From NCBI GenBank assembly GCA_040384705.1, contig JAZKIU010000001.1:478053-542052 (forward strand): a stretch of 64,000 bases of DNA. Reading direction: 5' to 3'. The stretch comes from Patescibacteria group bacterium (GTDB taxonomy: Bacteria; Patescibacteriota; Minisyncoccia; Phycocordibacterales; Phycocordibacteraceae). Under the pieces are notes generated by a model. It was not told the DNA's origin. It was given only the letters and a program-made list of their open reading frames with translations, and searched no databases. A program made the translations under genes and the position numbers. This document shows, piece by piece, positions 37,739-57,930 of the stretch; positions within the stretch are counted from its first letter, which is position 1; every line of letters begins with the position of its first letter.

Positions 37739-38752
37739 CTATCGCTTGCTGATGATGCTCTTCTTATATGTATCCAAATGCTTGAGCGCGACCCCGGTGC
37801 CGCGCGCGACGCAGAAGTACGCTTCGTCGGCGAGCTTCGCTTGCACTCCCGTGCGACGGAACACGAGCTCGGGGAGGTGACGGAGCTGGCTGGTCCCGCC
37901 GGTGAGTATGATGCCGTTGTCGATGATGTCGCTCGCAAGCTCGGGCGGCGTCTCCTGCAGGACCTTGCGGATGGCGTTCATCATCTCGCGCAGTTCCCTA
38001 TTCATCGCTTGCACTATCTCGTTAGTGCGTAGCTCTATCGTGCGCGGAAGGCCTGACACGAGGTCGCGGCCCTTCACCTGCATGGAGAGCTCCTCGGAGA
38101 CCGGGACTGCGGACCCTATATGTATCTTTATCTCCTCCGCCGTCTTATCCCCTATCGCAAGGTTGTACTGCTTCTTCACATAGTCGATGGTGGCGCGGTC
38201 GAGCTTGTTGCCCGCGACCTTCACCGAGGTCGAGGCGACGATGCCGCCGAGCGATATCACCGCCACATCGATGGTGCCGCCGCCGATGTCAGCCACCATA
38301 CGCCCGAGCGCTTCCTGGATGGGGATGCCCGCGCCAATAGCGGCGAGGATGGGTTCCTTCACGACGAACGCATCCTGCGCGCCGGCCTTTACCGCAGCCT
38401 CGATGACGGCGCGCTTCTCGGTGGAAGTGACGCCTGCAGGAACTGACACGAGCACGATGGGCTTGAGGATGTTCCAGTGTCCGAGCGCCTTGCGTATGAA
38501 ATAGCGGAGCATGGCTTCGGTGACGCGGTAGTCGGCAATGACGCCGTCCTTCATAGGGCGATACGCCGTGATGGAGTCCGGGGTGCGCCCTATCATCGCC
38601 TTGGCTTCGGCACCAATCGCAAGCACCTTGTTGGTTTCGGTCGAGACAGCCACCACCGATGGCTCGTTCAGCACCACCCCCTTCCCGGGCACGAACACGA
38701 GCACGTTGGTCGTACCGAGGTCGATGCCGAGACGGGGTGAGAAGGAAGCCAT
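37739..38752 (-). CDS. Second MreB-family actin homolog (Mbl-like paralog)
   Basis: LGIDLGTTNVLVFV, DIGGGT; 337 aa. Confidence 0.88.
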   Translation of the reverse strand: MASFSPRLGIDLGTTNVLVFVPGKGVVLNEPSVVAVSTETNKVLAIGAEAKAMIGRTPDSITAYRPMKDGVIADYRVTEAMLRYFIRKALGHWNILKPIVLVSVPAGVTSTEKRAVIEAAVKAGAQDAFVVKEPILAAIGAGIPIQEALGRMVADIGGGTIDVAVISLGGIVASTSVKVAGNKLDRATIDYVKKQYNLAIGDKTAEEIKIHIGSAVPVSEELSMQVKGRDLVSGLPRTIELRTNEIVQAMNRELREMMNAIRKVLQETPPELASDIIDNGIILTGGTSQLRHLPELVFRRTGVQAKLADEAYFCVARGTGVALKHLDTYKKSIISKR

Positions 38753-43051: not shown

Positions 43052-43126
43052 TTCCGCGGTAGCTCAGCGGTAGAGCAGTCGACTGTTAATCGATCGGTCG
43101 CAGGTTCGAATCCTGCCCGCGGAGCC
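43052..43126 (+). tRNA. tRNA-Asn (anticodon GTT), CCA encoded
   Basis: Acceptor TCCGCGG/CCGCGGA, anticodon loop CTGTTAA, T-arm GCAGG-TTCGAAT-CCTGC, then G and CCA. Confidence 0.8.
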
Positions 43127-43130
43127 AAAT

Positions 43131-43161
43131 GAAAACACCCCTTTCGGGGTGTTTTCATTTC
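43131..43161 (+). terminator. Rho-independent terminator after tRNA-Asn
   Basis: AAAACACCCC-TTTC-GGGGTGTTTT followed by CATTTCC. Confidence 0.7.
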
Positions 43162-43228
43162 CGAACGAAGCGACACGGGGAAGCCACTTATCTGCATAGC
43201 CCTGGTACCCAAATGGTATACTGCCGTC

Positions 43229-43459
43229 ATGAGCTTCTTGGATTTCTTCCGAAAGAAAGAGGGGAAGGAAAATGCCGCCGCAGACTCAAGCGCGAGCTTC
43301 GTTCCAATGACGGCCGCATCAGATTCTGACTCTCCCGATACCGCTGCCCCGCTGCCCGGCGTGAATGATGCAGGGAACGCTACAACTACAGATAGTAGCG
43401 GGAGCTTTTTCGGTGGTGACGGAGGTGGTGGCGGCGGAGGCGATGGCGGCGGGAGCTAG
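43229..43459 (+). CDS. Possible small Gly/Ser/Asp-rich protein (76 aa)
   Basis: A TATACT -10 box lies 6 nt before the ATG (near-leaderless). Low-complexity tail GGDGGGGGGGDGGGS. Confidence 0.25.
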   Translation: MSFLDFFRKKEGKENAAADSSASFVPMTAASDSDSPDTAAPLPGVNDAGNATTTDSSGSFFGGDGGGGGGGDGGGS

Positions 43460-43642
43460 GGCGCTTTCGATACTATTTACCGGATACAAAGGCTCTAACG
43501 CCTTCGGCTGGAAGAACACAGGAGCCCTCGCGGGCTCGTCTGCCTTTTAACCGCCCTTCTTTGACATGCCTGTTTTTAGGAGTATAAGAACCAGCAGACG
43601 GTGCCAGGTATTCCTACCTATTCTTCTGAAAAGGGGTTCACC

Positions 43643-44620
43643 ATGTACAAGAAGACCGTTGCGTTCCTGCTTTCTTTGATGGCAGTGACTTACCTCTATG
43701 CCGCTCCCGCGTTGGCGGAGGAAGCGCTCGACGTGCCCATCGCTACCGCGCCCCTGGAGAATGAGGTCGCGGAGGGCGATATCCAGCACGAAGAGCCCAT
43801 CCTCCTATCCTCCGCTCCGGGCTTCAGTGGGCCCTGGCTTCGAAAGCTCGATCCCCCGACCTGTTCCGGTACGGCCGCCCTCGGCGTCCAGGCCGGTTAC
43901 TTCTACCCCAACTATGGGATGGACGTCGCCAACAACAAGCCGACATCGCAGGGCGCGGTGACGGGCACCTGCGAGGACTTCACGGCGGAGGTGGGCGGCT
44001 CCAAGCTCCTTTCCTCCAAGGAAGGGAGCTATAGCGAGCGGCTCGCGAACGAGTGGTGGGTGCGCGCGACCTATCACCCGGAGTTCAAGACGCGTATCGG
44101 GAGGTTCCGCTTCGAAGCCACGGTCGTGTACCGCGGTCTCGACCACGGCCAAGGCCTGGGAGCGACCCGGGACGACTCCACTGAACTTGTCGGCGGAGTC
44201 GGGTATCTCATGACGTTCGGCTCCTTCGAGGTCATGCCCTGCATCCGCTCGGTCAAGTCCAATCCGGTCGGGTACAACAACTCGCTGTACTGGGCCGGCG
44301 AATGCCTCGGGATCAGGGGGCCGCTCCCCGGCGACGGCACGTTCCGCATGAATTTCAACTACATGCATAACGTGAACTCCGTTACGGCGGTCATCCACCG
44401 GAACGTGCTCTATGGCTCCATTGAGGGAAGCAAGCAGCTTCCCGGCCAGGCCTGGACCATCACGGCCGGCTTCTGGTTCTCGCAGTACGGGGAGCAGGAC
44501 AGCCGTTTCGGTATCCTCATCGATCGCGACGGCCGGATGAACCGCATCAAGACGGATGTCGGCCCCTCGAGCCAGAAGATGGTGATCAACCAATATGTGC
44601 GCATTTCGCGCACGTTCTAG
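43643..44620 (+). CDS. Secreted hypothetical protein (signal peptide; high GC3), 326 aa
   Basis: MYKKTVAFLLSLMAVTYLYAAPALA signal peptide. Upstream TTGACA-N17-TATAAG promoter and an SD. A terminator follows. Confidence 0.6.
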   Translation: MYKKTVAFLLSLMAVTYLYAAPALAEEALDVPIATAPLENEVAEGDIQHEEPILLSSAPGFSGPWLRKLDPPTCSGTAALGVQAGYFYPNYGMDVANNKPTSQGAVTGTCEDFTAEVGGSKLLSSKEGSYSERLANEWWVRATYHPEFKTRIGRFRFEATVVYRGLDHGQGLGATRDDSTELVGGVGYLMTFGSFEVMPCIRSVKSNPVGYNNSLYWAGECLGIRGPLPGDGTFRMNFNYMHNVNSVTAVIHRNVLYGSIEGSKQLPGQAWTITAGFWFSQYGEQDSRFGILIDRDGRMNRIKTDVGPSSQKMVINQYVRISRTF

Positions 44621-44639
44621 ATAAAGACGAATAGCACTG

Positions 44640-44669
44640 GCCGCCCCACCGGGCGGCCATTCTTTTCAT
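44640..44669 (+). terminator. Rho-independent terminator
   Basis: GGCCGCCCC-ACC-GGGCGGCC followed by ATTCTTTT. Confidence 0.7.
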
Positions 44670-44729
44670 GCATACCTCAGTTCCCCGCTGTATACTGCTG
44701 CCTATACAAGCCGCTTACCGCATATACCT

Positions 44730-45074
44730 ATGAACAAATTCCTCGTACTCTACCTCGCTCCTGTATCCGTCCTCGATGAATGGATGAATAAGGATCCGGA
44801 GGAACGGAAGGCCGAAGAAGACAGGATGAAGGATGAGTGGGATGCATGGATGGAGAAGCACGGGAGCATGGTCAAGGAGACCAATGGCGCCGGCAAGACG
44901 AAGCGGGCCACTCCGGACGGCGTTGCCGACGCACGGAACGACGTGATGATGTACTCGATAGTGGAAGCCGATGACCATGCAGCTGCGGCAGCTATCTTCG
45001 AGGACCATCCGCATCTCCAGATCCCGCAGGCCACGATAGATATCATGGCCGTGAACGACCTTTCGGGGATGTAG
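44730..45074 (+). CDS. Hypothetical protein (114 aa); possibly a small alpha+beta-barrel (YciI/Dabb-like)
   Basis: Good protein-like composition; family assignment is uncertain. Confidence 0.4.
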   Translation: MNKFLVLYLAPVSVLDEWMNKDPEERKAEEDRMKDEWDAWMEKHGSMVKETNGAGKTKRATPDGVADARNDVMMYSIVEADDHAAAAAIFEDHPHLQIPQATIDIMAVNDLSGM

Positions 45075-45135
45075 GGTTCGGGCTATTTATCCCATTACGT
45101 AGTATGGTGTATGCAACACTAATACATACGAACCC

Positions 45136-45240
45136 ATGGGAACGAACAGTCACGGCGTAAGCCCCAAGAAAATACGGAAGAGCCCGCCCAAGACCAAGAA
45201 GCGGTTGGCGATAAAGCTCGCGAAGAAGAACGCTCGTTAG
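45136..45240 (+). CDS. Possible 34-aa lysine-rich peptide (MGTNSHGVSPKKIRKSPPKTKKRLAIKLAKKNAR)
   Basis: Short ORF ending 3 nt before a 15-bp perfect-stem hairpin. Resembles very small basic ribosome-associated proteins (e.g. bS22) only in composition. Confidence 0.2.
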   Translation: MGTNSHGVSPKKIRKSPPKTKKRLAIKLAKKNAR

Positions 45241-45243
45241 CGA

Positions 45244-45277
45244 CATGATGAAGGCCCCGAAAGGGGCCTTCATCATG
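45244..45277. terminator. 15-bp perfect-stem hairpin CATGATGAAGGCCCC-GAAA-GGGGCCTTCATCATG
   Basis: Seen directly in the sequence. No U-tract follows. Confidence 0.5.
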
Positions 45278-45373
45278 TAATGGGGATAGTGGGGCTGACG
45301 GTAACGGAAGAAGGTACCATATTGATATACCAGCGAACGTTCGCGACTCTCCTTTTCCCCTGGTACCACCACG

Positions 45374-46078
45374 ATGGGATTCAACGAAACGATACTCCTC
45401 ATTCTCGGCATCATCAGCCCCGCGCTCGTGCTTGCCGCATGGAAGTTCGATAAGGAGCGGCTCCATAGCGTCATCCTCGTGTTCCTTATCCTCATCTCCA
45501 TCGCGGGAAGCAAGATAGTGGAGTTCTTCGGCTACGCCACGAACACCGGCAACATCTTCTATGCCTCCATCTTCCTCGCGACCTACTTCCTCATCGAGCG
45601 GTACGGCAAGCGGGAGGGCATCCGCTCCCTATGGATAGGAGTGGTCGGCATCGTCTTCTTCTCGATGCTCCTGCAGCTAGCCGCTGCGCTCATCAGCACC
45701 GAAGGTACCGCTTCGCTCAGCAATGCGCTGATGCTCGCGTTCGCACCGGCATCGAAGGTGGCGCTTGCGAGCCTGCTCGGATACGCCGCGAGCCAAAGCC
45801 TGAACGTGTATCTTTATATCCGTCTCAAGAACCGGTTCGGCCACAGGCTGTTGTGGCTCCGGGCGAATGCCTGCAATGTCCTGGCCCAGGTAGTCGATAG
45901 CGCCATCTTCTTCACCGTGGCCTTCTGGGCGGTCGTTCCTCCCGCTAATATCTGGGAAATCATGCTCGTCGGCTTCGTCATCAAGGTCCTGTATATGATG
46001 CTCGTTTCCCCGCTTCTCTACCTCAACCGTGTCGAGGAGGACGAGGGAAAGGAGTATGCGCAGCTGACGTTGCGGTAG
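45374..46078 (+). CDS. yhhQ: Queuosine-precursor transporter, YhhQ / DUF165 family
   Basis: Polytopic membrane protein with the family-typical N-terminus and conserved R/N positions; 234 aa. Confidence 0.75.
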   Translation: MGFNETILLILGIISPALVLAAWKFDKERLHSVILVFLILISIAGSKIVEFFGYATNTGNIFYASIFLATYFLIERYGKREGIRSLWIGVVGIVFFSMLLQLAAALISTEGTASLSNALMLAFAPASKVALASLLGYAASQSLNVYLYIRLKNRFGHRLLWLRANACNVLAQVVDSAIFFTVAFWAVVPPANIWEIMLVGFVIKVLYMMLVSPLLYLNRVEEDEGKEYAQLTLR

Positions 46079-46149
46079 ATACGGCCTATATTTGCATATA
46101 TCAGCGAGTGTGTTAGAGTGCGAGCTCAAGTTCTTTTCAGTTAAATGTT

Positions 46150-46201
46150 GGTGTGCCGCACTTAAAAGCGCTTATTTCAGGGCTTTTAAGTGCGGTACAC
46201 C
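46150..46201 (+). other. 20-bp stem-loop (one G.U pair) immediately upstream of the first PEP-CTERM gene
   Basis: GGTGTGCCGCACTTAAAAGC - 12-nt loop - GCTTTTAAGTGCGGTACACC. Confidence 0.55.
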
Positions 46202-46243
46202 AGAATAGTTTTGGAGCCGCGCATTCTGAAGGGGCTTTCTTCA

Positions 46244-46915
46244 ATGAAGCTTTCGACTATTTTCGCGGCTACGGTCGCCGCTACCTGCCTGTTCGCCGGG
46301 TCCGCTAGCGCGGACGTGGTGACCTACAACACGGCGCCGACGGATCCCTATGACTACGGCTCCGGCAACAACTACGCGCCGTCGAACTCCGGAGTGCTCA
46401 GGACCACGGCCGGCGACGAGCTCGCCCTGCGCTTCCACGAGACCTTCCAGACGGCGCCGGCTTCGGTCGGGAAGAACTACTACTTCACCCTCGGCGCCGG
46501 CAAGCAGCTCAGCTTCGACTGGCTGATCGACACCACCGGCACCGGCGGGTTCGACGACGTGACGGCGGTTCTGACCCTCACCAACATCAACACCGGCGGC
46601 GTCTTCAGCTACAATCCGCTGGGGACGCCCGACAACCGGCCGGTCCAGTTCGACAGCCTGAGCAACAGCGCGCGGGTGAACTGGTTCGCCGTTCCGCTAC
46701 TGGGCTTCGATACGGCGATCGACGGCACCTACAACGCCAAGCTGGAGGTCAACGGTCTGATCGGCGGGCCGAAGTCGTTCGACATCAACGCGGTGTTCGG
46801 CGCCGGCTCCGCGGTCCCGGAACCCGCCACCTGGGCGATGATGATCATCGGCTTCGGCGGCGTGGGCTCCATGGTGCGCGCCAATCGGCGGCGCCAGGTC
46901 CTCGTCTTGGCGTAA
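46244..46915 (+). CDS. PEP-CTERM sorting-domain protein (PEPxxWA variant) with N-terminal signal peptide
   Basis: C-terminus VPEPATWAMMIIGFGGVGSMVRANRRRQ: PEP motif, transmembrane helix, then an Arg cluster. High GC3. Confidence 0.75.
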   Translation: MKLSTIFAATVAATCLFAGSASADVVTYNTAPTDPYDYGSGNNYAPSNSGVLRTTAGDELALRFHETFQTAPASVGKNYYFTLGAGKQLSFDWLIDTTGTGGFDDVTAVLTLTNINTGGVFSYNPLGTPDNRPVQFDSLSNSARVNWFAVPLLGFDTAIDGTYNAKLEVNGLIGGPKSFDINAVFGAGSAVPEPATWAMMIIGFGGVGSMVRANRRRQVLVLA

Positions 46916-47094
46916 GCCACGGCAACCAATCAAGCACCTTTCGCTTCGGCGATACATCGGCGGGTCCCACGGACCCGCCGATTCTTTTTATCCCACCACC
47001 GCCCAGCTATTGCCTCATTTGATTTAGAGTGGTAAAGTCACGCCAGTTCCATAACCAGTACATTCCGTAATCAGGCACTCGAAAGGAGCCCGAA

Positions 47095-47709
47095 ATGAAG
47101 CGTTTCTCTTGCGTTGCAGCCGCGATTGCGGCCCTCTGCCTCTCGGCCACCGCCGCCAACGCGGCTAACCGAGTCACCTTCGAAGGCATCATCGACCGTG
47201 GCGTCGACGCCGACGAGATCTTCGGTAAGGGTCTTGATCTGGATGGCCTTTCGTTCACGGCCAGCTACGTCTTCGACGCCGACCTCGGCGTTCGCGTGAC
47301 CGAGCCCGGGTCCGACACCCTCACGACCGGCGTGACCTCGCCGTTCACCACGGTCAGGTTCACCATCGGCGGAGTGACCCGCTATCTGGACATGATCGCC
47401 GGCGGCACGAGCATCACGGGCACGACGATTACGTTCAACGCCTTCCCGGATCCCGACGACGCCCTGACCATGCACATGACGTCGGCCGCGATTCCCCCAC
47501 TGCTCACCACGCCGTTCGGCCGCACGGCCGGCTCCGGCTCCGGCAACGTCGAGTTCCCCAACGGCTACGGGTACTTCAGCACCTACTACGTGACGAACGA
47601 GTCGCTCTCGGCCATCCCGGAACCCGCCACCTGGGCCATGATGATCGTCGGCTTCGGCCTGGCCGGCTCCGCGCTTCGGCGCAGCCGGAACATCCCGGTC
47701 GCCGCCTAA
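47095..47709 (+). CDS. PEP-CTERM sorting-domain protein (PEPxxWA variant), second copy
   Basis: C-terminus IPEPATWAMMIVGFGLAGSALRRSR. Signal peptide MKRFSCVAAAIAALCLSATAANA. Strong SD AAAGGAG. Confidence 0.75.
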   Translation: MKRFSCVAAAIAALCLSATAANAANRVTFEGIIDRGVDADEIFGKGLDLDGLSFTASYVFDADLGVRVTEPGSDTLTTGVTSPFTTVRFTIGGVTRYLDMIAGGTSITGTTITFNAFPDPDDALTMHMTSAAIPPLLTTPFGRTAGSGSGNVEFPNGYGYFSTYYVTNESLSAIPEPATWAMMIVGFGLAGSALRRSRNIPVAA

Positions 47710-47824
47710 GTCAGGCACGGGCAAATACTAGGGCCGCCACCTCCTTTCGGAGCTGGCGGCCTTTCTCATTACATACGAAAACAGCTCCGCATATAGCGGA
47801 GCTGTTTTCAGCTTACATTCCCTG

Positions 47825-50800
47825 CTATTGCGCTGCCGCCGTCGCGTTCAGGAGTCCTTGGGTCTTTGGACCCACTTCCCCTACTGCTTCAAGCGCGCTG
47901 GCTGCCTGGAACTTCATGACCGCTTCTTTCGTAGCTGGTCCGTAGTATCCGGTGATTTCCGGATAGGTGTAGTGCCCGAGCTTCCGGAGGAGCTCCTGGA
48001 GCGCTATCACTTCGGCGCCGGTCGCGCCCTGCATGAGCCGCTTCGTGAAGACATAGGCACGTACCGCCCCTGCGACCGAACCGCCGTTGCCCTGAGCGAA
48101 CGATCCTGCTGCGAGGCTCGCTACTTCGCCTGCCGAGAGCGCACGGTTGTAGATGCGGAAGTCGTCGATGAGGCCCTGGAAGGCATAGTCGGCACGGGAA
48201 GAATCGAATCCTATACCCATCTTGAGCAGCTTCTGGTTGAGCAACCCGAAGTTAGCCTTGGTTCCAGACCCTACCAGCACTCCGTCCACATAGAAGGCGG
48301 AGTTATCGCCATCGAGGGTGCCGGCGAGGTGATACCACCGGTTGAGCGCCATCGGAGCGGTCTTAGGGGCCCCCGCTCCGGCAGTGGTCGTTGCGTCGCT
48401 CCACACTACTCCAGGACCGCCGCCGTAGTTGCCCGCGGCGAAGTGCGCGCTGTAATCGACGGTGTTGCTCGAAGCGGTGCGGCCGTGCACGAATGCGTAG
48501 TTGAGGGAGCCTGAGAGGTCACGAGCGTTGACCCACATAGCGACCGTTGCGCGGTCCGTAATATTGAGGTCGGAGAGCGGGATGGTACCGATGACGGCAC
48601 CCTGTTTCCGCGTGTTCATCGAGAGCGCTTCTCCCGACTTTCCCGCCACGATGGTCGCACCGTTCGTGAGCGTCGCGATGTGGTTGTTACCGGAGATGTC
48701 GCGGACAACGCTGCTGAAGACGGTCGCATTGTCGAAGCTGAACCGTATGACCGGACCGACTGAATTTACTGCCGGTATCTTCGGCTTCGAAGAGGTCACG
48801 AGCACTTTCACCTGGCAGGTGTTGGTGCCGCCGGCTCCCGTCACCGTTGCGGTGTAGCCGGTGGAATCGAACGGCGTGACCGAGACCGTGCCGTTCACGG
48901 CGATGGAGCCGACCCCGTTATTGATGCTTGCTGATGTCGCGCCCGTGCTTGCAAGCGTAAGCGTCGCCGACGTATCGCGTTCGATGGATATCGCGCTGGT
49001 GCTGAGCGTACAGGTCGGCGGGTTGGTACCGGTCGCGCCTGCGGTCGGTGCCGAGCCCGTCGGGAACGAGCCCGCACCCTTCCCGTCGATTATGGATCCT
49101 GCCTTAGGACGGAGGTCGAAGGTGGCGGTCGTCTTGTCGAATACCCGGAACACGCTCGTCGGGTCGCTTATCGAGAAGTTGTTCTCGGAAAGCACGACTG
49201 GAATGGTCCGGATGGTGACCGCGATGTTGTTACGGAGGATGGTGTTCGTCGGCACGATGGTCGATGACTTCCCCTCGTCAACGGTTATCCAGCTGTTCGC
49301 GCCGTTGTTGGTGTAGTTCACGACGGTGTTGTTCGCGATGAGCGAATCGCGCGCAGCGGTCGTGATGCCGTGCCATACCGACGTGATGATGGTGTTGTTC
49401 GTTACCTTGAAGTTGGTGAGTGGTCCATCGAAGTGCCCGATGCCCTGCATGCCGCCGATGTATGCGCGGTTAGGGTTCGTGGTCTCCTGTATCCAGTTCT
49501 TATCCAGCACGATGTTGTCCTGCGCGAAGCCTTCGAGAGCGAACATCTGGATGCCGTCATCGTGGTTCGCGTCACCATCCTTGCTGCCCAGGTACTGGTC
49601 ATACATGAAGTTGCCGCGCATGGTGATGTCGGAACCGATAGGGCGCATGCCGTCGGCGGAGAAGTTACGTATCTCGTTCCCTTCCACCAGGATCTTCTGG
49701 CGGCTATCGGCGACGTTCGTAGCATCGCTGAGGAATGTCATGCCGGCGCGGATATTCGAGAGCTTGTTGCGGAGTACCGCCACGCACTTCGCGTTACGCG
49801 TCGAGATACCCGAGGACGCCGCGAGCCACTCAGTAGGGCCCCAACCTGATGTGTTGCGCGTGGTGTACATCTCGGAGTCGGCAAGGACCATTTGCCCGCC
49901 ATTGCCGAATGAGACGAATCGCACGCCCGTACCGGTGAATTCACCGTTCGTAATGAGCCAGCGGTTCATGTCCTTCAGGTCCATGCTCTTCATCACCGCG
50001 CCTTCCCTGAAGTCGATCCAGATCCACTGCGTCGTACCCACGAGGTATGAGGTGGTGTATCGGTTCACGACGAGAGAGCCGTGGTCGCCAGGAAGGAGCA
50101 CGACGCGGTCCCCTCCTTGGGTCTTCCTTCCGTTCACGAAGAGCTGCAATGTCTTGTACGGCTTCGCGAGCGAACCATCACCGGTCGTGTCGTTACCCAG
50201 CACCGGATCGATGTAGATGGTGCGGAGGTACGACGTCGCTGGCGCTTCGCAGCCTGGGTACACCTGGTAGGTACCGGGCGAGGTCGAAGGCGTCGGGGTC
50301 GGCTGGGTCACGCTTGTCACTCCGACCGACACTGATTTGCTGACCGTACCTCCCGCTCCGGTGCAAGCGAGGGTATAGGTCGAAGGGGCGGTTATGTTAG
50401 TGACGGCCTTCGAACCGCTCGTTGCGAGCGTGCCGGTCCAGTTGCCGCTTGCTATACAGCTTGTAGCGTTCACGGCGGCCCAGGTAAGGGTCGCGCTCCC
50501 GCCCGAGGTGACGGACGAAACGTTTGAAGTAAGCGTGAGCGTCGGTGCTGAGGCCGGGCTGACGACGGTCACGACGACTTCTTTCGCAACGCTTCCTCCT
50601 GCACCCGTACACGTGAGTGCATAGGTCGAAGGCACCGTTATGCCGGAGACCACCTTCGAGCCGCTTGCTGCGAGGGCACCGGTCCAGCTACCGGATGCGG
50701 TACAGCTCGTTGCATTCGTTGCGGCCCAGGTAAGGGTCGCGCTTCCGCCGGACACCACCGACGCGGCGCTCGAAGTGAGCGTAAGCGTTGGAACTGCTAC

Positions 50801-52006
50801 CGGCACCGGGCTGATGACGGTGACGGAGATGGACTTCGCCGCGGTACCGCCCGCTCCGCTACAGGTGAGGGTATAAGTAGTGTTGTTTAGTATCCCAAGG
50901 ATGCTCTTCGTGCCTGAAGTGGTCTGTGTTCCGCTCCATCCACCGCTCGCTATGCAGCTTGTGGCGTTGGTCGTTGCCCAGGTGAGGACCACTTTGCCGT
51001 CACGGGTGATCGTCGCGAGATCGCTCGAGAGCGTAACGGTCGGTGCAGGAGTCGGGACCGGGACAGGAGGAGTCACGGGATTCGAGACCGCGACCTTCAC
51101 GGACTTCGTTATGCTGCCGCCCTCGCCGGTGCAGGTGAGTATGAATGTCTGATCCAAGGAGAGGTTCGTGAAATCCTTCGTACCCTTCACTGCCTGGGTA
51201 CCGGTCCATGAGCCGCTTGCGGTACAGCTCGTTACGTTCGTACCCGACCATTGCAGTACCACCGTGCTGCCGGAGGTGACGTCAGTATCGTTCACCGAAA
51301 GCGTGAGGCGTGGTCGGTTCCGCATCTGCTTCTCTATGCGCTCGCGGATGCTGTTCACGTCTGAAGCAACGCTGCCGCCGGTAGTGCTGGTATTAGTGCC
51401 GGTGCTGCTTACGAGCGTAAGCGCCTTCTCCGCGAGATGCGTGACGGTGCGCGGCCCGACGTACCCGACAGGTTCGAGATTATTAGCTGCCTGGAACGCA
51501 GCGACCGCTGCCTTGGTGAGCGTTCCGAAATAACCGGTCGGTTCGACCGTGAGGTATCCCAATCGCTTCAGAATGTCCTGCACCGCGTGCACTGCGGCAC
51601 CGCTTGACCCTATCGCAAGCGGAGCAAGAGGGGTGGTGGCTGGAGCTGAATAGGCAGGAGTCGTCGCTGCAGCCGGTGCAGAAGACGTGTTTCCCCCGAG
51701 ACGTGCTACGAGCGCGAGGCGCGTGGAGCGATCGAAGGCGCCGCTCGCGTAGAGACCGCTCGCAGCCTGGAACTTCATGACTGCCTCCTTCGTAGCCGGG
51801 CCATACACGCCAGTCGGCGCTGCGTTCAGATAGCCGAACCGCGCAAGCGCTTGCTGGAGCTCGGTGACCTGGCTTCCCTGGCTGCCCTCGCCAAGAACGG
51901 CGGTGAGCTCGGCTGAAGAAGTTCGAGGGAGCACGAAGGCCGCTGCGGCCACGAACGTTATCATGAAGAAAACAAGAACGAGGGTGGCACGTAGTGAATG
52001 GGACAT
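47825..52006 (-). CDS. Giant secreted surface protein (1393 aa): three peptidoglycan-binding domains, four tandem Ig-like repeats, a right-handed beta-helix region, and a LamG/ConA-like lectin domain
   Basis: Peptidoglycan-binding (PG_binding_1-like) repeats (..GSQGSQVTELQQALARFGYL..YGPATKEAVMKFQAAS..) occur twice at the N-terminus and once at the C-terminus. TLTWAATNATSC.ASGSWTG....TCTGAGG occurs four times. NNTI/NNTV beta-helix rungs. LNRWYHLAGTLDG...GLIDDFRIYNRALSAGEV is LamG_3-like. Confidence 0.8.
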   Translation of the reverse strand: MSHSLRATLVLVFFMITFVAAAAFVLPRTSSAELTAVLGEGSQGSQVTELQQALARFGYLNAAPTGVYGPATKEAVMKFQAASGLYASGAFDRSTRLALVARLGGNTSSAPAAATTPAYSAPATTPLAPLAIGSSGAAVHAVQDILKRLGYLTVEPTGYFGTLTKAAVAAFQAANNLEPVGYVGPRTVTHLAEKALTLVSSTGTNTSTTGGSVASDVNSIRERIEKQMRNRPRLTLSVNDTDVTSGSTVVLQWSGTNVTSCTASGSWTGTQAVKGTKDFTNLSLDQTFILTCTGEGGSITKSVKVAVSNPVTPPVPVPTPAPTVTLSSDLATITRDGKVVLTWATTNATSCIASGGWSGTQTTSGTKSILGILNNTTYTLTCSGAGGTAAKSISVTVISPVPVAVPTLTLTSSAASVVSGGSATLTWAATNATSCTASGSWTGALAASGSKVVSGITVPSTYALTCTGAGGSVAKEVVVTVVSPASAPTLTLTSNVSSVTSGGSATLTWAAVNATSCIASGNWTGTLATSGSKAVTNITAPSTYTLACTGAGGTVSKSVSVGVTSVTQPTPTPSTSPGTYQVYPGCEAPATSYLRTIYIDPVLGNDTTGDGSLAKPYKTLQLFVNGRKTQGGDRVVLLPGDHGSLVVNRYTTSYLVGTTQWIWIDFREGAVMKSMDLKDMNRWLITNGEFTGTGVRFVSFGNGGQMVLADSEMYTTRNTSGWGPTEWLAASSGISTRNAKCVAVLRNKLSNIRAGMTFLSDATNVADSRQKILVEGNEIRNFSADGMRPIGSDITMRGNFMYDQYLGSKDGDANHDDGIQMFALEGFAQDNIVLDKNWIQETTNPNRAYIGGMQGIGHFDGPLTNFKVTNNTIITSVWHGITTAARDSLIANNTVVNYTNNGANSWITVDEGKSSTIVPTNTILRNNIAVTIRTIPVVLSENNFSISDPTSVFRVFDKTTATFDLRPKAGSIIDGKGAGSFPTGSAPTAGATGTNPPTCTLSTSAISIERDTSATLTLASTGATSASINNGVGSIAVNGTVSVTPFDSTGYTATVTGAGGTNTCQVKVLVTSSKPKIPAVNSVGPVIRFSFDNATVFSSVVRDISGNNHIATLTNGATIVAGKSGEALSMNTRKQGAVIGTIPLSDLNITDRATVAMWVNARDLSGSLNYAFVHGRTASSNTVDYSAHFAAGNYGGGPGVVWSDATTTAGAGAPKTAPMALNRWYHLAGTLDGDNSAFYVDGVLVGSGTKANFGLLNQKLLKMGIGFDSSRADYAFQGLIDDFRIYNRALSAGEVASLAAGSFAQGNGGSVAGAVRAYVFTKRLMQGATGAEVIALQELLRKLGHYTYPEITGYYGPATKEAVMKFQAASALEAVGEVGPKTQGLLNATAAAQ
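50370..51335 (-). repeat. Four tandem in-frame repeats of about 285 bp (each about 95 aa) encoding Ig-like domains inside the giant gene
   Basis: Near-identical peptide blocks. Shadow ORFs 50394..50624, 50640..50876 and 50880..51152 are visibly similar to each other. Confidence 0.7.
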
Positions 52007-52315
52007 GGAATAGGTGTTACCTCCCCATCATAGCAAGCAGGAGCAGGAAAATAGGGTTACCCACATCTTCATGAAGGAGCTCGGGTGGCCTACCTGTGGG
52101 CTATACTGGACGTATGAAAACCATACTCTCTATCCTCATAGCCCTAGGGCTCGCCTACCTCCTGTTCGTCGCCGCTAATACCTATATCTATACGCAGGAG
52201 CAGGACGAAGCGACGCAGAAGGCGGGCGTTTCCATCCAGTGGGGCTTCTAGTTCACCTGGGGTTCACGGCGCACCCGGTATAGTCGTGGCTTAGGAGCCA
52301 TAAGACCACACGAGT

Positions 52316-52507
52316 ATGCCCGACAACAGCACCATTACCGGGCAGCGGAAACGGGGATTCGCTGCCATGGACGAGGAGACGCAGCGCGAGATAGCGCGCA
52401 AGGGCGGAAGGGCCGCGCACGCGAAAGGTACGGCCCACCAGTTCAACTCCGACGAAGCGCGTGCGGCCGGCCGCAAAGGCGGCCAAGCGAGCCGACAGAC
52501 GAGCTAG
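52316..52507 (+). CDS. KGG-repeat general stress protein (YciG/Con-6-like)
   Basis: KRGFAAMDEETQREIARKGGRAAH..GTAHQFNSDEARAAGRKGGQA. Confidence 0.7.
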   Translation: MPDNSTITGQRKRGFAAMDEETQREIARKGGRAAHAKGTAHQFNSDEARAAGRKGGQASRQTS

Positions 52508-52554
52508 TCTTCGTTCCCCCAAACGCAGAGCGCCGCGCAATTGCGCGGCGTCGC

Positions 52555-52968
52555 CTATTTCTTTCCTGCGTGCTTCTCGCACCTGCACCCGAACGGCTTG
52601 ATGTGCTCATCGAAGTATTCCTTCCCGTAATCATAGGTGAGCTCCTCGCCTGGCTTGATGTTCCGCGTCGCGAGTATGAATACGCGCCCCTTGTGTATCT
52701 CGCTCTCCGCATTCCATCTGCAGGAGTGATTGATATATCCCGCCTTGTTCCACTTCGGTTTCCCGTCGAGCGTCTTGTTCTTGTTCACCTGGAAAAGGTA
52801 CTTGCTCTTGCTTGTGTCCTCTTCCTCCTTCGATATCACGCGGCCGACGTACTCGATGATGCACGCGCCCTTGGGTATCGCGGATTCCGTAAAGAGTCCG
52901 AGCCCGGCGCTTGAGCGGCGGACTCGGAGATCGAATGCTCCCGGTTCGAACTTGCTTGTCTTTGGCAT
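52555..52968 (-). CDS. SET-domain protein (putative protein-lysine methyltransferase)
   Basis: GLGLFTESAIPKGACIIEYVGRVI..., NHSCRWNAE, ELTYDYG and a C-terminal CRCEKH. Confidence 0.75.
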   Translation of the reverse strand: MPKTSKFEPGAFDLRVRRSSAGLGLFTESAIPKGACIIEYVGRVISKEEEDTSKSKYLFQVNKNKTLDGKPKWNKAGYINHSCRWNAESEIHKGRVFILATRNIKPGEELTYDYGKEYFDEHIKPFGCRCEKHAGKK

Positions 52969-53083
52969 AGTTTCCCTATCCTAGCGCAAACCCGCGCGCT
53001 CCACAAAAGAATAGAAGCCCGGCATGATTAGCCGGGCCTCGATGTCGCACGAATGAGCAGTTCAAATGAGAGGATGGTGCGGG

Positions 53084-53368
53084 TCAGGCCGCGTCGAGGA
53101 GCGCTTCTTGCGCATCCGCCCCGTTCTGGGGCTTCGACAGGCCGTCGTAGAAGTAGGTGATCGGAACCTCGAGTGCGTCAGCGAGGAGCCATAGCATGGC
53201 CGCTGTTATGCGATTGGCGCCGCACTCGTATTTCTGGACCTGCTGGAACGTGACGCCAGCCAGTTCGCCGACCCGCCTTTGCGTGAGGCATAATTCCTTC
53301 CTTCGGAAATAGAGCCGTTTCGCCAACTGCAGGTCGATGGATTGAGTAACGTGTGTTTTCCCGCCCAT
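53084..53368 (-). CDS. XRE-family helix-turn-helix transcriptional regulator
   Basis: LTQRRVGELAGVTFQQVQKYECGANRITAAML.. HTH_3 pattern. Divergent from the VanY-like gene. Confidence 0.7.
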   Translation of the reverse strand: MGGKTHVTQSIDLQLAKRLYFRRKELCLTQRRVGELAGVTFQQVQKYECGANRITAAMLWLLADALEVPITYFYDGLSKPQNGADAQEALLDAA

Positions 53369-53460
53369 GGATATCTCCCGTTTTGATCCAATATGCACTC
53401 TAACATGATTAGGTGAAATGTAAATGAATGGTGGTTACACGCTATGGTACACTCGCCTCC

Positions 53461-54342
53461 ATGCAGAATCATCAGCTCCAGCTCATCATCGCAAGCGTCG
53501 CGTGCCTCATACTCCTTGGCGCGCTCTTCTTCGGGGTGTACCAGTATATGGAGCTCGATACCGAGGCGAATGCGCTCGCGAAAGCGAAAGTGGAGAGCGA
53601 TGCATATATCGAGGAGCTGACGGACAAGGTAGCGATGCTTGGTGCGGAGAACGCGCAGCTTGTGAGTGCGCTTCGATACGAGCAAGCGAAGGCCGGCGGG
53701 TTTGAGCGCCAGATACAGGACATCTCCGGGACCGTGGGCACGCTTGCGAAGCTCGCGGCGACGGACCCTGAGCTGCTCGCGAAGTATTCGAAGATCTATT
53801 TCCTCAACGAGAACTACGTGCCGTCAGCGCTCGGGACTATAGATAAGGAGGACCTGAGCGATCCCGCGAAGACCCTTGAGTTCCATGCGGAGGCGCTTCC
53901 CCACCTTGAAGACCTCCTGGAGGAGGCTAGCGAGGACAAGATAGAAATACGCGTCGTGTCCGCATTCCGCTCGTTCGGCACGCAAGCCGCGCTCAAGGGG
54001 AATTACCTCGTGACCTATGGCGCGGGCGCGAACCGCTTCTCCGCCGACCAGGGCTATTCCGAGCACCAGCTCGGCACTACGGTCGACTTAACTACGCCTG
54101 CGCTCGGGAGCGTATTCACGAGCTTCGCCGCGACCGATGCGTACGGTTGGCTCACGGAGAACGCCCACCGCTACGGCTTCATCCTCTCGTACCCTGCAGG
54201 CAACGTGCATTACCAGTACGAACCCTGGCACTGGCGGTATGTGGGCATCGAGCTCGCGACCAAGCTCCATAAGGAGGGCAAGAATTTCTATGACCTCGAT
54301 CAGAGGGAGATAGACACCTATCTCGTTTCCCTATTCGATTGA
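53461..54342 (+). CDS. D-alanyl-D-alanine carboxypeptidase, VanY / peptidase M15B family (N-terminal transmembrane anchor)
   Basis: SAFRSFGTQAAL, SEHQLGTTVDL, YGFILSYP..EPWHWRYVG. Confidence 0.8.
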   Translation: MQNHQLQLIIASVACLILLGALFFGVYQYMELDTEANALAKAKVESDAYIEELTDKVAMLGAENAQLVSALRYEQAKAGGFERQIQDISGTVGTLAKLAATDPELLAKYSKIYFLNENYVPSALGTIDKEDLSDPAKTLEFHAEALPHLEDLLEEASEDKIEIRVVSAFRSFGTQAALKGNYLVTYGAGANRFSADQGYSEHQLGTTVDLTTPALGSVFTSFAATDAYGWLTENAHRYGFILSYPAGNVHYQYEPWHWRYVGIELATKLHKEGKNFYDLDQREIDTYLVSLFD

Positions 54343-54354
54343 TATACTAGTCGT

Positions 54355-54666
54355 ATGGCAGAGATGTACGATTTCAGAAAGGAGCGCGCCATGCGCCAAC
54401 CCGTAGCGGAGACCACGAAAGAAGACGTGGCGCTCGACATCAACCACCGTCAGACCATGCTGGCAGAGCTCCGTCGCCTTCACGAGGAGCATCCTACCCA
54501 ATGGAGCGAACGGGCCTTGGCACGAGCGGAGGAAATCACCGAGAAGTACACGGAAACGGAGATGGTGCAGCTCATCAATGACAGCACGCCGCAGCAATGG
54601 AACGACAATCCCGTCTTCTACGATACGCTGGTACGGAAACTATCGACTCCCCTGCCTCCGCGCTGA
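54355..54666 (+). CDS. Hypothetical protein (103 aa)
   Basis: Helical composition; no recognisable domain. Confidence 0.35.
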   Translation: MAEMYDFRKERAMRQPVAETTKEDVALDINHRQTMLAELRRLHEEHPTQWSERALARAEEITEKYTETEMVQLINDSTPQQWNDNPVFYDTLVRKLSTPLPPR

Positions 54667-54716
54667 GTTCTAGGGATCCAGGTTGAGGAAACGGCCGCAT
54701 GCATGCGGCCGTTCTT

Positions 54717-55952
54717 TTACTTCATCGCTGCCCAGGTTCCCTTATCCTCCCCCCCATCTATCTTGAATATCGCGATGCCGCGTACGCCGAGCTTCTTTGC
54801 GAGCGCGACGTGCCCTTCGAGCGCTCCTGCATCGCTCCAGGAGAGCATGCGGAAGGTTACTGGCACGTTGTTCTTGAGCGCATAGGCTTTCGCGCCCTGA
54901 GCGACGAGCTCGCCTGAAGCGGTCCCCGCAGGCGCAAGCGCGATGAGTTCCTTCTGCGACGGTCCTTTCGCTTTCTTATCTATATACGTGATGACGGCTT
55001 CCCCGGCGGCGTTACGGCTCTGCTTCACCTTGAACTTCTTCTCTATCTCGCTGCCGTATCCATGATTGAAGGACCAGAGGTTCTTGTACGTGAACTTGCC
55101 CGCAGGGCTCACCGTCACCTCGAGCTCACGGCCGTATGTCGCAACGCCGATGAATATCTTCTCTTTCGGTATGTCACGGGCAGTTAGGTTCACTACCTTC
55201 TCCGTCCAGAGCGTGTCGGCCACGGGGAAGTACGGGCCAGGGCGTAACGCATTGAGCTTCTGGTCGGCAGTCTGCTGGTCGTAGGTCATGAGCCGCACAG
55301 TGTCGCAGGCCTTCCCTATCGAGGGATAGTCGTTCGCGAACTCGTACGCAGTTGCAGGCGGGGTGCCGGTATAGCGGTCAGGGACCGGGGTGCGCGCCTC
55401 TATCGTGCAGGAGAGCTGCTTGCTGCCGAGCGCGATATTGAGCTCCGCGAGGAAAAGGGAGAAATAGGTGCGGGTCTCGGCGAGTTTGCCTTCATAATCG
55501 ATGTCTATGCCGTCATAGCCGTTATCCTCCACGAGCTCGACGATGTTCTCTATATGGTCGGCGCGGAGCGATGCGTCCGAGAGGACGCGATGGGTGCTCT
55601 GCCCATCGTTCCACATGAGGGTGGGTACGTAGCGTGTTCCCTCCTTATCCGCGGCCTTCGCGAGCTTCTTCCAGTGCGAGGCGGTCATCTTGCCGTTATC
55701 GCTCAGGCTGCCGTCCTTCTTCACGATATAGGTGAAGGGGTTCACTTCATCGAGCTGCTTGATGTGCTTGCGGGCGTCGTCCGCCCCTTTCTTGGCGGTC
55801 CAGTACGGTACCCAGCCCGAATACTCGAGCGAAGCGGTCTGCGCATGGGCGGCTGACGCGAACATGGGAGCGAAGGATCCGGCGATGAGCCCGATACCCG
55901 CGAGGATAGCGAAGAATGCGAACAGGCGATGCATGAAGGTCTTCATTGCCAC
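54717..55952 (-). CDS. Glycoside hydrolase family 18 (chitinase-like), secreted
   Basis: Signal peptide. YDGIDIDYE catalytic motif (DxxDxDxE). Confidence 0.8.
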   Translation of the reverse strand: MAMKTFMHRLFAFFAILAGIGLIAGSFAPMFASAAHAQTASLEYSGWVPYWTAKKGADDARKHIKQLDEVNPFTYIVKKDGSLSDNGKMTASHWKKLAKAADKEGTRYVPTLMWNDGQSTHRVLSDASLRADHIENIVELVEDNGYDGIDIDYEGKLAETRTYFSLFLAELNIALGSKQLSCTIEARTPVPDRYTGTPPATAYEFANDYPSIGKACDTVRLMTYDQQTADQKLNALRPGPYFPVADTLWTEKVVNLTARDIPKEKIFIGVATYGRELEVTVSPAGKFTYKNLWSFNHGYGSEIEKKFKVKQSRNAAGEAVITYIDKKAKGPSQKELIALAPAGTASGELVAQGAKAYALKNNVPVTFRMLSWSDAGALEGHVALAKKLGVRGIAIFKIDGGEDKGTWAAMK

Positions 55953-56026
55953 AGTATAACAAAAGACGAACAGCCCCGCGGAAAGTTTCCGCGGGGCTGT
56001 TCTAAGGTCGTATGTGATTTTGCTGA

Positions 56027-56644
56027 TTAGCGCATCGCGAGCGTAGGCTCGGCGAACATCGCCTCGAGTTCCGCCTGGGTCTTGGGAATATCCTTGATGT
56101 CGATATGTCCCACGACCGTTATCGTGACTCCGCCGCAGACACCGAACACGCGACCGGGGTTCATCTCAATGCCGTTCACCTGCACGGTATCCGCCTGGTC
56201 GAGCAAGATATCTATCTTGTCCGTCCAACGGCTGTGCATAGTGTCCGCGATGACGCGGTAGCCAATGAGGTGATCCACCTTGCCGAACTGGCAGCGAGGC
56301 GTGTCCGCAGCTGTACGCTCTACCTTGATGACAGTACCGAACGGAAGTTCAGCAGCGAGATCCTGGGAGCGGGCAGCGACGACTTCCGGGTTCGTCCACG
56401 CGCCTGAGGCGGTGATGAACGGGTCCGAGTCGGTCTGTGCGGGGACGGCATTGTATGCCGTCATGCTTACCGTATAGCTTTGGGTCGCTTCCTTGGCGGA
56501 CGCGACCTTCACGGGGGAAGGCTCATCGTCCGCAGGAGTGGCGACGTCAGATGCGCTGGTTACTTGCGCATGTGCCGGGGCCCCAACGCTAGCGGGCAAA
56601 AAGAAAATGGCCATAACAGCCAGTACGTAGAATTGCATATTCAC
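56027..56644 (-). CDS. 3D-domain protein (MltA/YuiC-like lytic transglycosylase fold), secreted
   Basis: Signal peptide; TAYNAVPAQTDSDPFITASG...GTVIKVE...YRVIADTM. Confidence 0.7.
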   Translation of the reverse strand: MNMQFYVLAVMAIFFLPASVGAPAHAQVTSASDVATPADDEPSPVKVASAKEATQSYTVSMTAYNAVPAQTDSDPFITASGAWTNPEVVAARSQDLAAELPFGTVIKVERTAADTPRCQFGKVDHLIGYRVIADTMHSRWTDKIDILLDQADTVQVNGIEMNPGRVFGVCGGVTITVVGHIDIKDIPKTQAELEAMFAEPTLAMR

Positions 56645-57803: not shown

Positions 57804-57930
57804 ATTCTTGCACTTGTTCACCTTAGACCCCTTATCTAGCACATACTATGAATTACCTTGATCAAATTCCGGTCCTTTTCTCGAAAACAGGGGTTCCAGC
57901 AAGAAAGAACTTCTTTGTTATAATCTAGAT

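Follow-up and report, generated by a model that had tools for sequence, protein, structure and literature searches.

A tandem PEPxxWA-CTERM gene pair in a patescibacterial genome lies in a mosaic, tRNA-proximal locus

Introduction

PEP-CTERM/exosortase sorting is regarded as a trait of diderm, polysaccharide-producing bacteria. Bacteria of the Candidate Phyla Radiation (CPR; Patescibacteria) have no outer membrane, and the locus described here raises the question of what two tandem genes for proteins with such sorting signals are doing in a CPR genome of ~0.64 Mb. They lie in a 64,000-nucleotide stretch of contig JAZKIU010000001.1 (assembly GCA_040384705.1, positions 478,053 to 542,052), which we call the window. 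A sequence-only reading had noted the pair, a stem-loop upstream of it and an unusual base composition, and had offered horizontal acquisition from Proteobacteria, an unrecognised sorting system or a chimeric assembly as explanations. We conclude that the two products are probably variable surface proteins of horizontal origin that are resident in this genome and anchored in the membrane through their tail.

Results

Both genes encode ordinary members of the PEPxxWA-CTERM class

The tandem pair exists as it had been described:

46244..46915, + strand: gene 1 (g1), 223 aa, with an ATG start, a signal peptide (46244-46312), a beta-sandwich, a PEPxxWA-CTERM tail (46814-46891) and a short basic end
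47095..47709, + strand: gene 2 (g2), 204 aa, with a signal peptide (47095-47163), a small all-beta domain and a PEPxxWA-CTERM tail (47614-47682)

The products match exactly the NCBI proteins MES2995012.1 (gene 1) and MES2995013.1 (gene 2) of a 'Patescibacteria group bacterium', encoded on a 640,007-bp contig, and the PGAP annotation at NCBI already names both PEPxxWA-CTERM. The frame of gene 1 is open from a GTG at 46190, and PGAP starts it at a TTG (46211; 234 aa); this longer start, together with truncation of the gene in Logan, accounts for the absence of a record in an exact look-up of the 223-aa product.

Both products exceeded the curated cutoff of the class profile NF035944 (35 bits), gene 1 with 48.1 bits over residues 191-216 of 223 and gene 2 with 52.3 bits over residues 174-196 of 204. 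They also passed TIGR02595 (21.0 and 20.8 bits, respectively; cutoff 16) and PF07589 (29.7 bits each; cutoff 20.7), and three relatives from other CPR genomes described below (gA, gB and P0123) passed NF035944 with 46.8-48.4 bits, as well as PF07589. Scores remained below threshold for the FxDxF PEP-CTERM family (NF038126, 50 bits; gene 2 34.5, gene 1 28.4) and for the flocculation protein PepA (NF033554, 80 bits; gene 2 27.4). The tails (VPEPATWAMMIIGFGGVGSMVRANRRRQ and IPEPATWAMMIVGFGLAGSALRRSRN) are tripartite in both proteins, with the motif [VI]PEPATWAMMI-GFG, a hydrophobic stretch and an Arg cluster, and the N-termini (MKLSTIFAATVAATCLFAGSASA and MKRFSCVAAAIAALCLSATAANA) are signal-peptide-like segments, assigned by eye, with AxA at their end. 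The earlier claim that both proteins carry a PEP-CTERM sorting signal, for which TIGR02595 had been proposed as a check, is thus borne out by three profiles. A lipoprotein signal peptide was rejected, as neither protein has a lipobox.

At the nucleotide level the two genes resemble each other only over their last ~100 nt (72% identity). AlphaFold (AF2) models showed an all-beta sandwich for gene 1 (pLDDT, a per-residue confidence measure, 84.8) and a compact all-beta domain for gene 2 (pLDDT 78.9), each with a terminal helix for the tail. Foldseek searches of the PDB returned weak matches only, to a Gram-positive pilin domain, the Wzt carbohydrate-binding domain and the C-terminal barrel of NHBA. 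From the models, the domains would be non-enzymatic binding or coat domains. The proteins are ordinary, already annotated members of the PEPxxWA-CTERM class and their genes are genuine, expressed-looking genes of a groundwater CPR bacterium.

The gene pair is not an assembly artefact

We considered the possibility that the pair had been joined to a CPR contig by chimeric assembly. One Logan contig of the source run SRR26324625 links the upstream Vut_1 transporter gene with most of gene 1, and a second one links the end of gene 1, gene 2 and a 1379-aa wall-binding protein. Both junctions between host genes and PEP genes are therefore internal to Logan contigs, and the sole break lies in the gene 1 tail motif (46840-46849), where the two contigs end and overlap, probably because other PEPxxWA genes of the sample share k-mers with the PEPATWAMMI stretch and branch the assembly graph. 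The same neighbourhood (a 328-aa secreted protein, a 114-aa protein, PEPxxWA genes, a giant peptidoglycan-binding protein, then KGG, SET, HTH, VanY and GH18 genes) was recovered from a related species in three replicate assemblies of Hainich well H51 (0.1-μm fraction, metaSPAdes-style) and in ERZ27247837 (a k141 contig). Since independent samples and assemblers give the same junctions, the chimeric-assembly explanation is refuted.

Conserved leaders and tails bracket variable domains

Comparison with the related loci indicated that the locus is mosaic. Three PEPxxWA genes are present on the Hainich H51 contigs, namely gA (234 aa), gB (263 aa) and an orthologue of gene 2, and only two, gB and gene 2, on an ENA contig (L009). 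Proteins flanking the array in the H51 relative are 80-96% identical to those of the window, and the gene 2 orthologues are 82% and 76% identical. gA is 49-53% identical to gene 1, and gB has a different domain. The same leader and hairpin precede gene 1, gA and gB, and the tails of these three genes (36-37 residues) are 97% identical as protein, with 4-7 of 96 nt differing, mostly in synonymous codons. The domains between leader and tail are only 33-53% identical. In blastn comparisons, window positions 46060-46387 matched the gA leader and 5' end (80%), positions 46388-46803 had no nucleotide match in the related loci, and positions 46804-47864 were collinear with the related locus L003 from the gB tail through g2 (87%). 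L009 has a gA-type promoter region followed by a gB-type hairpin and gB, the outcome expected of a deletion between two leader copies.

Evolutionary rates differed along the locus. The ratio of nonsynonymous to synonymous substitution rates (dN/dS) ranged from 0.06 to 0.19 among flanking genes and from 0.37 to 0.47 for g2, and stood at 0.84 for the g1/gA domain, with values of 0.08 and 0.18 for the signal peptide and tail of g1/gA; in the gB tail dN was 0 and dS 0.15. Between L003 and L009, which by their flanks are nearly one strain (dS 0.04), dS was 0.31 in g2 and 0.20 in gB, so that the alleles of g2 and gB predate the flanks or were exchanged. These rates fit a surface-exposed variable family. 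What the sequence-only reading had overlooked is that the hairpin and the tail are the conserved modules of a cassette-like hypervariable locus. It had likewise passed over the existing NCBI naming of both proteins and the probable separate transcription of the two genes.

The signals around the two genes are as follows:

46092..46119, + strand: putative sigma-70-type promoter of gene 1 (TTGCAT, 16 nt, TGT-TAGAGT), read from the sequence
46149..46202, + strand: leader hairpin of 23 base pairs with a 6-7-nt loop, ending 42 nt 5' of the gene 1 ATG
46956..46982, + strand: intrinsic terminator of gene 1, a 12-bp GC-rich stem followed by TCTTTTTAT (a T-run), kept downstream of gB in L003 and L009
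47010..47038, + strand: putative promoter of gene 2 (TTGCCT, 17 nt, TAAAGT), read from the sequence and kept in L003 and L009
47732..47761, + strand: terminator-like hairpin behind gene 2, from hairpin search and folding
47777..47809, no strand assigned: perfect 14-bp hairpin between convergent genes, kept in L003 and L009; probably the terminator of the minus-strand 1393-aa gene

The promoter block GTGTGTTA[GA]AGT is kept upstream of gA (L003) and gB (L009); a consensus promoter scan gave a different, weak site (46064-46092) in place of 46092..46119. Gene 1 has its own Shine-Dalgarno sequence, and AAGGAG lies 5' of the gene 2 ATG. As each gene has its own promoter-like hexamers and Shine-Dalgarno sequence, and a terminator lies between them, the two would form separate transcription units.

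The 20-bp stem-loop reported upstream of the pair is real, but it is longer than that, with 23 bp and arms of 24 nt (46149-46172 and 46179-46202; 92% complementary). Folding of this stretch of 131 nt gave -58.4 kcal/mol, far more stable than shuffled sequence (z = -6.5). The hairpin occurs once in the window and is kept upstream of gA and gB in the Hainich contigs, 98.6% of pair cells being retained across three distinct copies. Two pairs are altered on both sides, and two positions are G-U on the + strand, as would suit a stem in the sense RNA better than a palindrome in the DNA. The hairpin probably lies within the 5' untranslated region (5'-UTR), where it may act on mRNA stability or translation and, in addition, serve as a recombination block. 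A role as terminator of the Vut_1 gene was rejected because no U-tract follows it, and an integron attC site because of the lack of an integrase, the near-perfect stem and the position at the 5' end of the cassettes. In Rfam, only the tRNAs of the window reached the gathering score; a permissive search gave sub-threshold microRNA-precursor models, which fit any long hairpin and are spurious. The leader-hairpin pattern was found in Joint Genome Institute (JGI) metagenomes only on the known Hainich H51 contig.

Related genes occur at tRNA sites in several CPR lineages

The pair lies ~3 kb downstream of tRNA-Asn, and relatives are found beside tRNA-Asn or tRNA-Glu in four CPR lineages. Hainich well H41 yielded a more distant CPR genome, represented by a 397-kb ENA contig and by an NCBI contig of 565,823 bp labelled Patescibacteria, with housekeeping proteins 56-79% identical to those of the window. 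Its relative of gene 1 (P0123) stands beside tRNA-Glu, between TruB/DUF4230 and the Mur ligase gene. In locus L094 (SRR26458658), a PEPxxWA relative follows HPF-tRNA-Asn by 1.2 kb and precedes the ribonucleotide reductase genes, with a second PEP-CTERM gene 8 kb off. Taken together, the housekeeping proteins of the H41 and L094 lineages are 56-88% identical to those of the window. PEPxxWA genes are kept in at least 5 CPR genomes.

As a separate observation, the ribonucleotide reductase subunits of L094 (10322-13931) are only 36-39% identical to those of the window (58536-62528), compared with 88% for MreB and 60% for def/fmt. By sequence, this points to a non-orthologous replacement at the border of the island.

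Outside the CPR, the nearest sequences are alphaproteobacterial. A scan of GTDB species representatives for the tail type, with the gene 2 alignment as pattern, returned at least 599 stretches, the best 80 of which were all alphaproteobacterial; those named below class level belonged to Sphingomonadales or Caulobacterales (Phenylobacterium), and a few were labelled only Alphaproteobacteria, Pseudomonadota or 'metagenome'. The scan matched the tail only and missed the CPR genome of the window itself, and it is uninformative on other CPR genomes. The gene 1 family comprises 506 detectable proteins of 45-54% identity, and its named members are Sphingobium or Sphingomonas proteins, which answers the earlier suggestion that the taxonomy of the relatives be checked. 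Two unnamed relatives also stand in proteobacterial contexts, one with BamA (P0007) and one with TonB and GGDEF/EAL genes (P0127). The closest relative of gene 1 (P0122, 54%; locus L093, ENA ERZ27314274 k141_2336364) lies beside a Tn3-family transposase, a resolvase and an IS240 fragment, which suggests that genes of this kind travel on transposons; a tblastn search of PLSDB plasmids with gene 1 gave no match. Full-length relatives of gene 2 are distant (30-40% identity). These sequence comparisons point to Sphingomonadales/Caulobacterales-type Alphaproteobacteria as the donor clade.

Codon usage differed in the same direction. The GC content of third codon positions (GC3) was 0.915 in gene 1 and 0.878 in gene 2, the top two values in the window, as against 0.733 ± 0.073 in the 53 other genes (z = 2.5 and 2.0). 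This agrees with the earlier statement that the GC3 of the pair exceeds that of its neighbours, and the ATA-rich codon usage ascribed to the host was also found: ATA makes up 33% of host Ile codons, though the genome has 59% GC, as compared with 0 of 20 in the pair (Fisher p = 9e-4). CTG accounts for 14 of 32 Leu codons in the pair versus 13% in the host (p = 2e-5). Overall, the pair is rich in CTG, GCC and GGC and lacks ATA, and the Hainich copies show the same pattern. By the log-likelihood ratio of alphaproteobacterial versus host codon usage, genes 1 and 2 ranked as the top two among 55 window genes (z = 3.4 and 3.2). PEPxxWA genes rank at or near the top for GC3 in each CPR genome, yet their GC3 follows that of the host, with 0.68 in the 51%-GC H41 genome and 0.88-0.92 in the window; because it tracks the host, partial amelioration of old acquisitions is indicated.

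Horizontal acquisition from Proteobacteria, one of the three explanations first offered, is thus supported by the GTDB loci, the Sphingobium and Sphingomonas relatives, the codon usage and the position in a tRNA-Asn variable region, and the source can be narrowed to Alphaproteobacteria. The acquisition is old and perhaps repeated; it is not recent, since in several CPR lineages the genes are residents with conserved synteny and have been ameliorated in part.

No exosortase was detected near the genes

The cognate enzyme of PEPxxWA tails is exosortase V (XrtV). In Sphingomonas hankyongi and in a Sphingopyxis metagenome-assembled genome, open reading frames (ORFs) for XrtV (NF035943, 360-382 bits; cutoff 313) lie within 10 kb of PEPxxWA genes. 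We searched the six-frame ORFs of the window with an XrtV profile and with a broad profile built from 150 exosortase representatives (hmmsearch --max) and found no exosortase, in agreement with the sequence-only reading; as positive controls, the broad profile recovered XrtV in the alphaproteobacterial loci L035 and L044. The remaining CPR loci examined, ~83 kb on partly overlapping contigs, and L094 had none either. The window represents ~10% of the 640,007-bp contig, and ~576 kb lie outside it. A protein search with XrtV seeds from L035 and L044 gave, among the matches listed, only sphingomonad XrtV of at least 64% identity. Of the 8340 profile matches in 1.84 billion representatives, the best 150 were considered and 20 clusters looked up, none of which bore a CPR label; this is a weak negative.

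The most divergent XrtV (P0381, locus L095) lies with EpsI and glycosyltransferases in a large exopolysaccharide locus of proteobacterial type. Beside this XrtV and EpsI, an 84-aa product (L095, 12532-12786) is matched by a Pfam family that is itself named XrtV (PF28242), and the polysaccharide locus is interrupted by IS66.

The readable CPR DNA contains no EpsI, glycosyltransferase cluster or outer-membrane marker of the kind that would indicate a diderm host with an exopolysaccharide locus (the EpsH/EpsI context), a finding that bears on the context of the system and not on domain membership. The motif [VI]PEPA[TS]WA...GFG was invariant in all seven CPR tails examined, the domains of which differ by ~50%.

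Discussion

A model for the locus

We propose the following model. Each product would consist of a Sec signal peptide, an all-beta domain of ~150 aa and a PEPxxWA-type PEP-CTERM tail. The family was probably taken up from Sphingomonadales/Caulobacterales-type donors; it now resides in a variable region that begins at tRNA-Asn and is inherited within a CPR clade. The genes would form a cassette array in which a conserved leader (promoter and 23-bp 5'-UTR hairpin) and a ~100-nt tail bracket variable domains, and recombination between leaders or between tails would add, delete and swap cassettes. Such recombination is proposed to explain why close relatives have two or three genes with strongly diverged domains. 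After Sec export and removal of the signal peptide, the hydrophobic helix and the Arg cluster would hold the protein in the cytoplasmic membrane. Without an outer membrane, the beta-domain would be located at the cell surface, where host contact, phage or predators could exert diversifying pressure.

Several points weigh against this model. The part of it in which the tail anchors the protein without being processed leans on an incomplete absence, because the exosortase search covered about a tenth of the contig. According to Haft, PEP-CTERM proteins are reported only from exosortase-encoding genomes, which favours an enzyme somewhere in this one. The invariance of the motif exceeds what a plain transmembrane anchor needs, unless there were several acquisitions from donors in which XrtV maintains it. 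As to origin, a neighbour-joining tree built for the gene 1 family has the shape of a star and no support values, and the CPR sequences do not group in it, so that one and several acquisitions cannot be separated. High expression, and not a foreign origin, could be the cause of the raised GC3 and the C-ending codons, and a few other secreted-protein genes in the window share the alphaproteobacterial codon lean. Finally, the covariation in the hairpin, assessed on three distinct sequences, is not significant, the observed value being reached in 97 of 500 shuffles.

Alternative explanations

It is possible, though less probable than the model above, that the system is complete, and that XrtV or another enzyme of the exosortase/archaeosortase family is encoded in the ~576 kb beyond the window. 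The products of genes 1 and 2 would then be regular substrates, cut after PEP and attached to lipid or polysaccharide in the way of archaeosortase ArtA in archaea, whose cells lack an outer membrane too. The strict conservation of the motif in seven CPR tails, the purifying selection on these tails (g1/gA and gB) and the persistence of the family over CPR lineages with 56-88% housekeeping identity all argue for this possibility. The failure to find an exosortase in the window and in ~83 kb of other CPR loci with working controls, the lack of a CPR label among the 20 XrtV-like clusters, and the association of the divergent XrtV with EpsI and a large polysaccharide locus, less likely in a 0.64-Mb genome, speak against it, each as a weak negative. 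A bolder view, to which we give a rather low probability, is that the clade has no exosortase of its own, that XrtV-type proteins were captured more than once and kept as a recombining hypervariable array, and that the tails serve as anchors or as mimics of the host envelope or exopolysaccharide matrix. More specifically, the PEPxxWA proteins of a CPR cell without exosortase might imitate proteins of a Sphingomonadales/Caulobacterales host, or engage the XrtV or exopolysaccharide of that host, for attachment. The restriction of the tail type to these two orders among the best 80 loci returned, the abundance of plasmid-rich donors in the same aquifer (PMC12023590), the fast evolution and recombination of the domains, as expected of contact proteins, and the position within a surface-protein island are compatible with such mimicry. 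It is nonetheless improbable, as direct evidence of any host is absent and the conservation of the motif can be explained otherwise. Moreover, we know of no mechanism by which the inner-membrane exosortase of one cell would act on a membrane protein of another cell.

Two further explanations were weighed. Misassembly or misbinning could have put proteobacterial DNA onto a CPR contig, and the GC3 and codon usage of the pair, as well as the break of the source-run Logan contigs within the gene 1 tail motif, might be taken in this sense. We consider this very unlikely: both junctions lie within Logan contigs, the gene order was assembled independently from Hainich wells and in ERZ27247837, the divergence of the orthologues roughly matches that of the flanks, relatives occur in two more CPR lineages at other tRNA sites, and PEPxxWA GC3 follows the host genome. 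The genes could also be decaying, functionless remnants of a transfer, as the partner enzyme was not seen in the DNA searched and dN/dS is raised. Yet the ORFs are intact, with signal peptides, Shine-Dalgarno sequences and conserved putative promoters and terminators; signal peptide and tail are under purifying selection; and the genes are kept in at least 5 CPR genomes and have confidently predicted folds. Decay is the least credible of the explanations considered here.

Comparison with known systems and significance

The PEPxxWA-CTERM/XrtV system of Sphingomonadales and Caulobacterales (NF035944, NF035943) has the identical tripartite C-terminal tail, a signal peptide and a protein length of ~200-230 aa, and its N-domains are homologous to those described here (45-54% identity for gene 1 and 30-40% for gene 2). 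It differs from the present case in its host, which is here a ~0.64-Mb Patescibacteria bacterium with no outer-membrane markers, XrtV, EpsI or exopolysaccharide locus in the readable DNA, and in that the genes form here a leader/tail-bracketed variable array in a tRNA-bounded variable region. The PEPxxWA-CTERM/XrtV system is itself one form of the PEP-CTERM/exosortase system that Haft et al. 2006 described.

The exosortase family can work without an outer membrane, as archaeosortase ArtA does. In the LPXTG/sortase system of monoderms, surface display is likewise achieved without an outer membrane, by proteins with a signal peptide, a surface domain, a C-terminal motif, a transmembrane helix and a basic tail; motif and enzyme are unrelated, and none of the ORFs in the window ends in an LPXTG-like tail. 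To our knowledge, the lipid attachment of the ArtA type has been shown only in archaea. The S-layer glycoprotein of Haloferax volcanii, a single-membrane cell, reportedly carries a homologous tripartite signal, PGF-CTERM, handled by ArtA (Haft 2012, Abdul Halim 2013). That signal has another motif and the enzyme belongs to another subfamily, and no archaeosortase-like gene was detected in the DNA searched here.

The array itself has an analogy in the Mycoplasma proteins encoded by vsp/vlp loci. These consist of tandem paralogues with a conserved leader/signal and anchoring end, a variable middle and a copy number that varies between strains through recombination between conserved blocks. The PEPxxWA array similarly has conserved ends around a variable middle and differs in copy number. 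It differs from the Mycoplasma loci in that no site-specific recombinase, invertible promoter or simple-repeat switch was seen and in that the variation described here is between genomes.

Full-text searches of the literature found no paper on PEP-CTERM/exosortase in Patescibacteria/CPR and none mentioning PEPxxWA or exosortase V; in the few papers retrieved the terms have other, unrelated uses. Three features are new: proteins of this class are stably present in a Patescibacteria clade, their genes form a variable array bracketed by leader and tail in tRNA-proximal regions, and no exosortase is visible in the DNA searched. The taxonomic range of a known protein class is thereby extended, with an unusual locus architecture, and canonical PEPxxWA tails in several ultra-small CPR genomes widen the range of a sorting signal ascribed to diderm polysaccharide producers. 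Should an enzyme be present, CPR bacteria would offer a minimal exosortase system in cells that have no outer membrane, much like that of ArtA in archaea; should it be missing, the sorting signals would be orphans reused as anchors or host mimics. The narrow donor range (Sphingomonadales and Caulobacterales) yields a host or neighbour hypothesis for groundwater Parcubacteria-like CPR bacteria, whose hosts are largely unknown, and if the array is indeed an orphan one, its genes would be a molecular fingerprint of the symbiont's host.

Neighbouring genes and other features of the window

The window encodes a compact set of housekeeping functions (CysRS, DnaB, RecR, RmuC, Mur ligase, MraW, MraZ, RseP, two PBP2-type transpeptidases, two MreB, MurA, def, fmt, HPF and ribonucleotide reductase) and, by NCBIfam/Pfam, wall-related secreted proteins. 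The earlier description of a host without obvious outer-membrane markers and with a peptidoglycan-binding surface protein nearby holds: no such marker was seen among the window genes, and the protein encoded at 47825-52006 has three PG_binding_1 domains. The neighbours of the pair are:

43053..43127, + strand: tRNA-Asn(GTT), found by ARAGORN and Rfam; upstream edge of the variable region of ~43.1-58.5 kb
43601-44620: 339-aa secreted protein with no Pfam/NCBIfam match
45374..46078, + strand: queuosine-precursor transporter of the Vut_1 family (TIGR00697, 123.8 bits; PF02592)
47825..52006, - strand: 1393-aa secreted protein with three PG_binding_1 domains, Ig-like repeats and LamG (Pfam), syntenic in relatives

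The stretch from HPF/tRNA-Asn to the ribonucleotide reductase genes (43128-58535) forms a variable island of 15 kb with genes for secreted and wall-related proteins, comprising those for the 339-aa secreted protein, the PEPxxWA pair, the 1393-aa PG_binding/LamG protein, KGG, SET-domain, HTH, VanY and GH18 proteins and a 205-aa secreted protein; in the CPR relative L094 the interval measures ~2.4 kb. The 1393-aa gene is part of the same surface-protein island as the PEPxxWA pair. Its product is called as 1379, 1388, 1113 or 1023 aa in other assemblies, L003-L005 among them, probably because its internal repeats of ~100 aa lead to assembly or real length variation. The 339-aa protein gene, directly upstream of the array, has no ATA codons and a GC3 of 0.82, and is ~85% kept in relatives.

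The Vut_1 gene is a neighbour outside the PEPxxWA system. Positions 45275-46059 have no blastn counterpart in the related loci, where the 114-aa gene leads directly to the first PEPxxWA leader, and the gene appears, by this comparison, to be a strain-specific insertion or deletion of a salvage transporter.

Some other ORFs stand out. Two show alphaproteobacteria-like codon usage (37181-37675 and 21862-22302; z = 2.9 and 2.7; CTG 40-53% of Leu codons): the former encodes a 164-aa secreted protein with no family match, and the latter begins inside or beside tRNA-Glu, the PEPxxWA site of the H41 relative. At the far end of the island (57285-58458), two ORFs (172 and 175 aa) with one transmembrane segment each have a GC content of 0.48-0.52 and a GC3 of 0.49-0.53 (z ~ -3), well below the rest of the window. 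They show the poorest fit to host codon usage and are probably a further foreign segment. The SET-domain protein (52555-52968; a putative lysine methyltransferase fold), unusual for a minimal bacterial genome, is 96% kept in the Hainich relative. Lastly, two full-length MreB paralogues (31416-32513 and 37739-38752) are encoded within 6 kb of each other in this very small genome.

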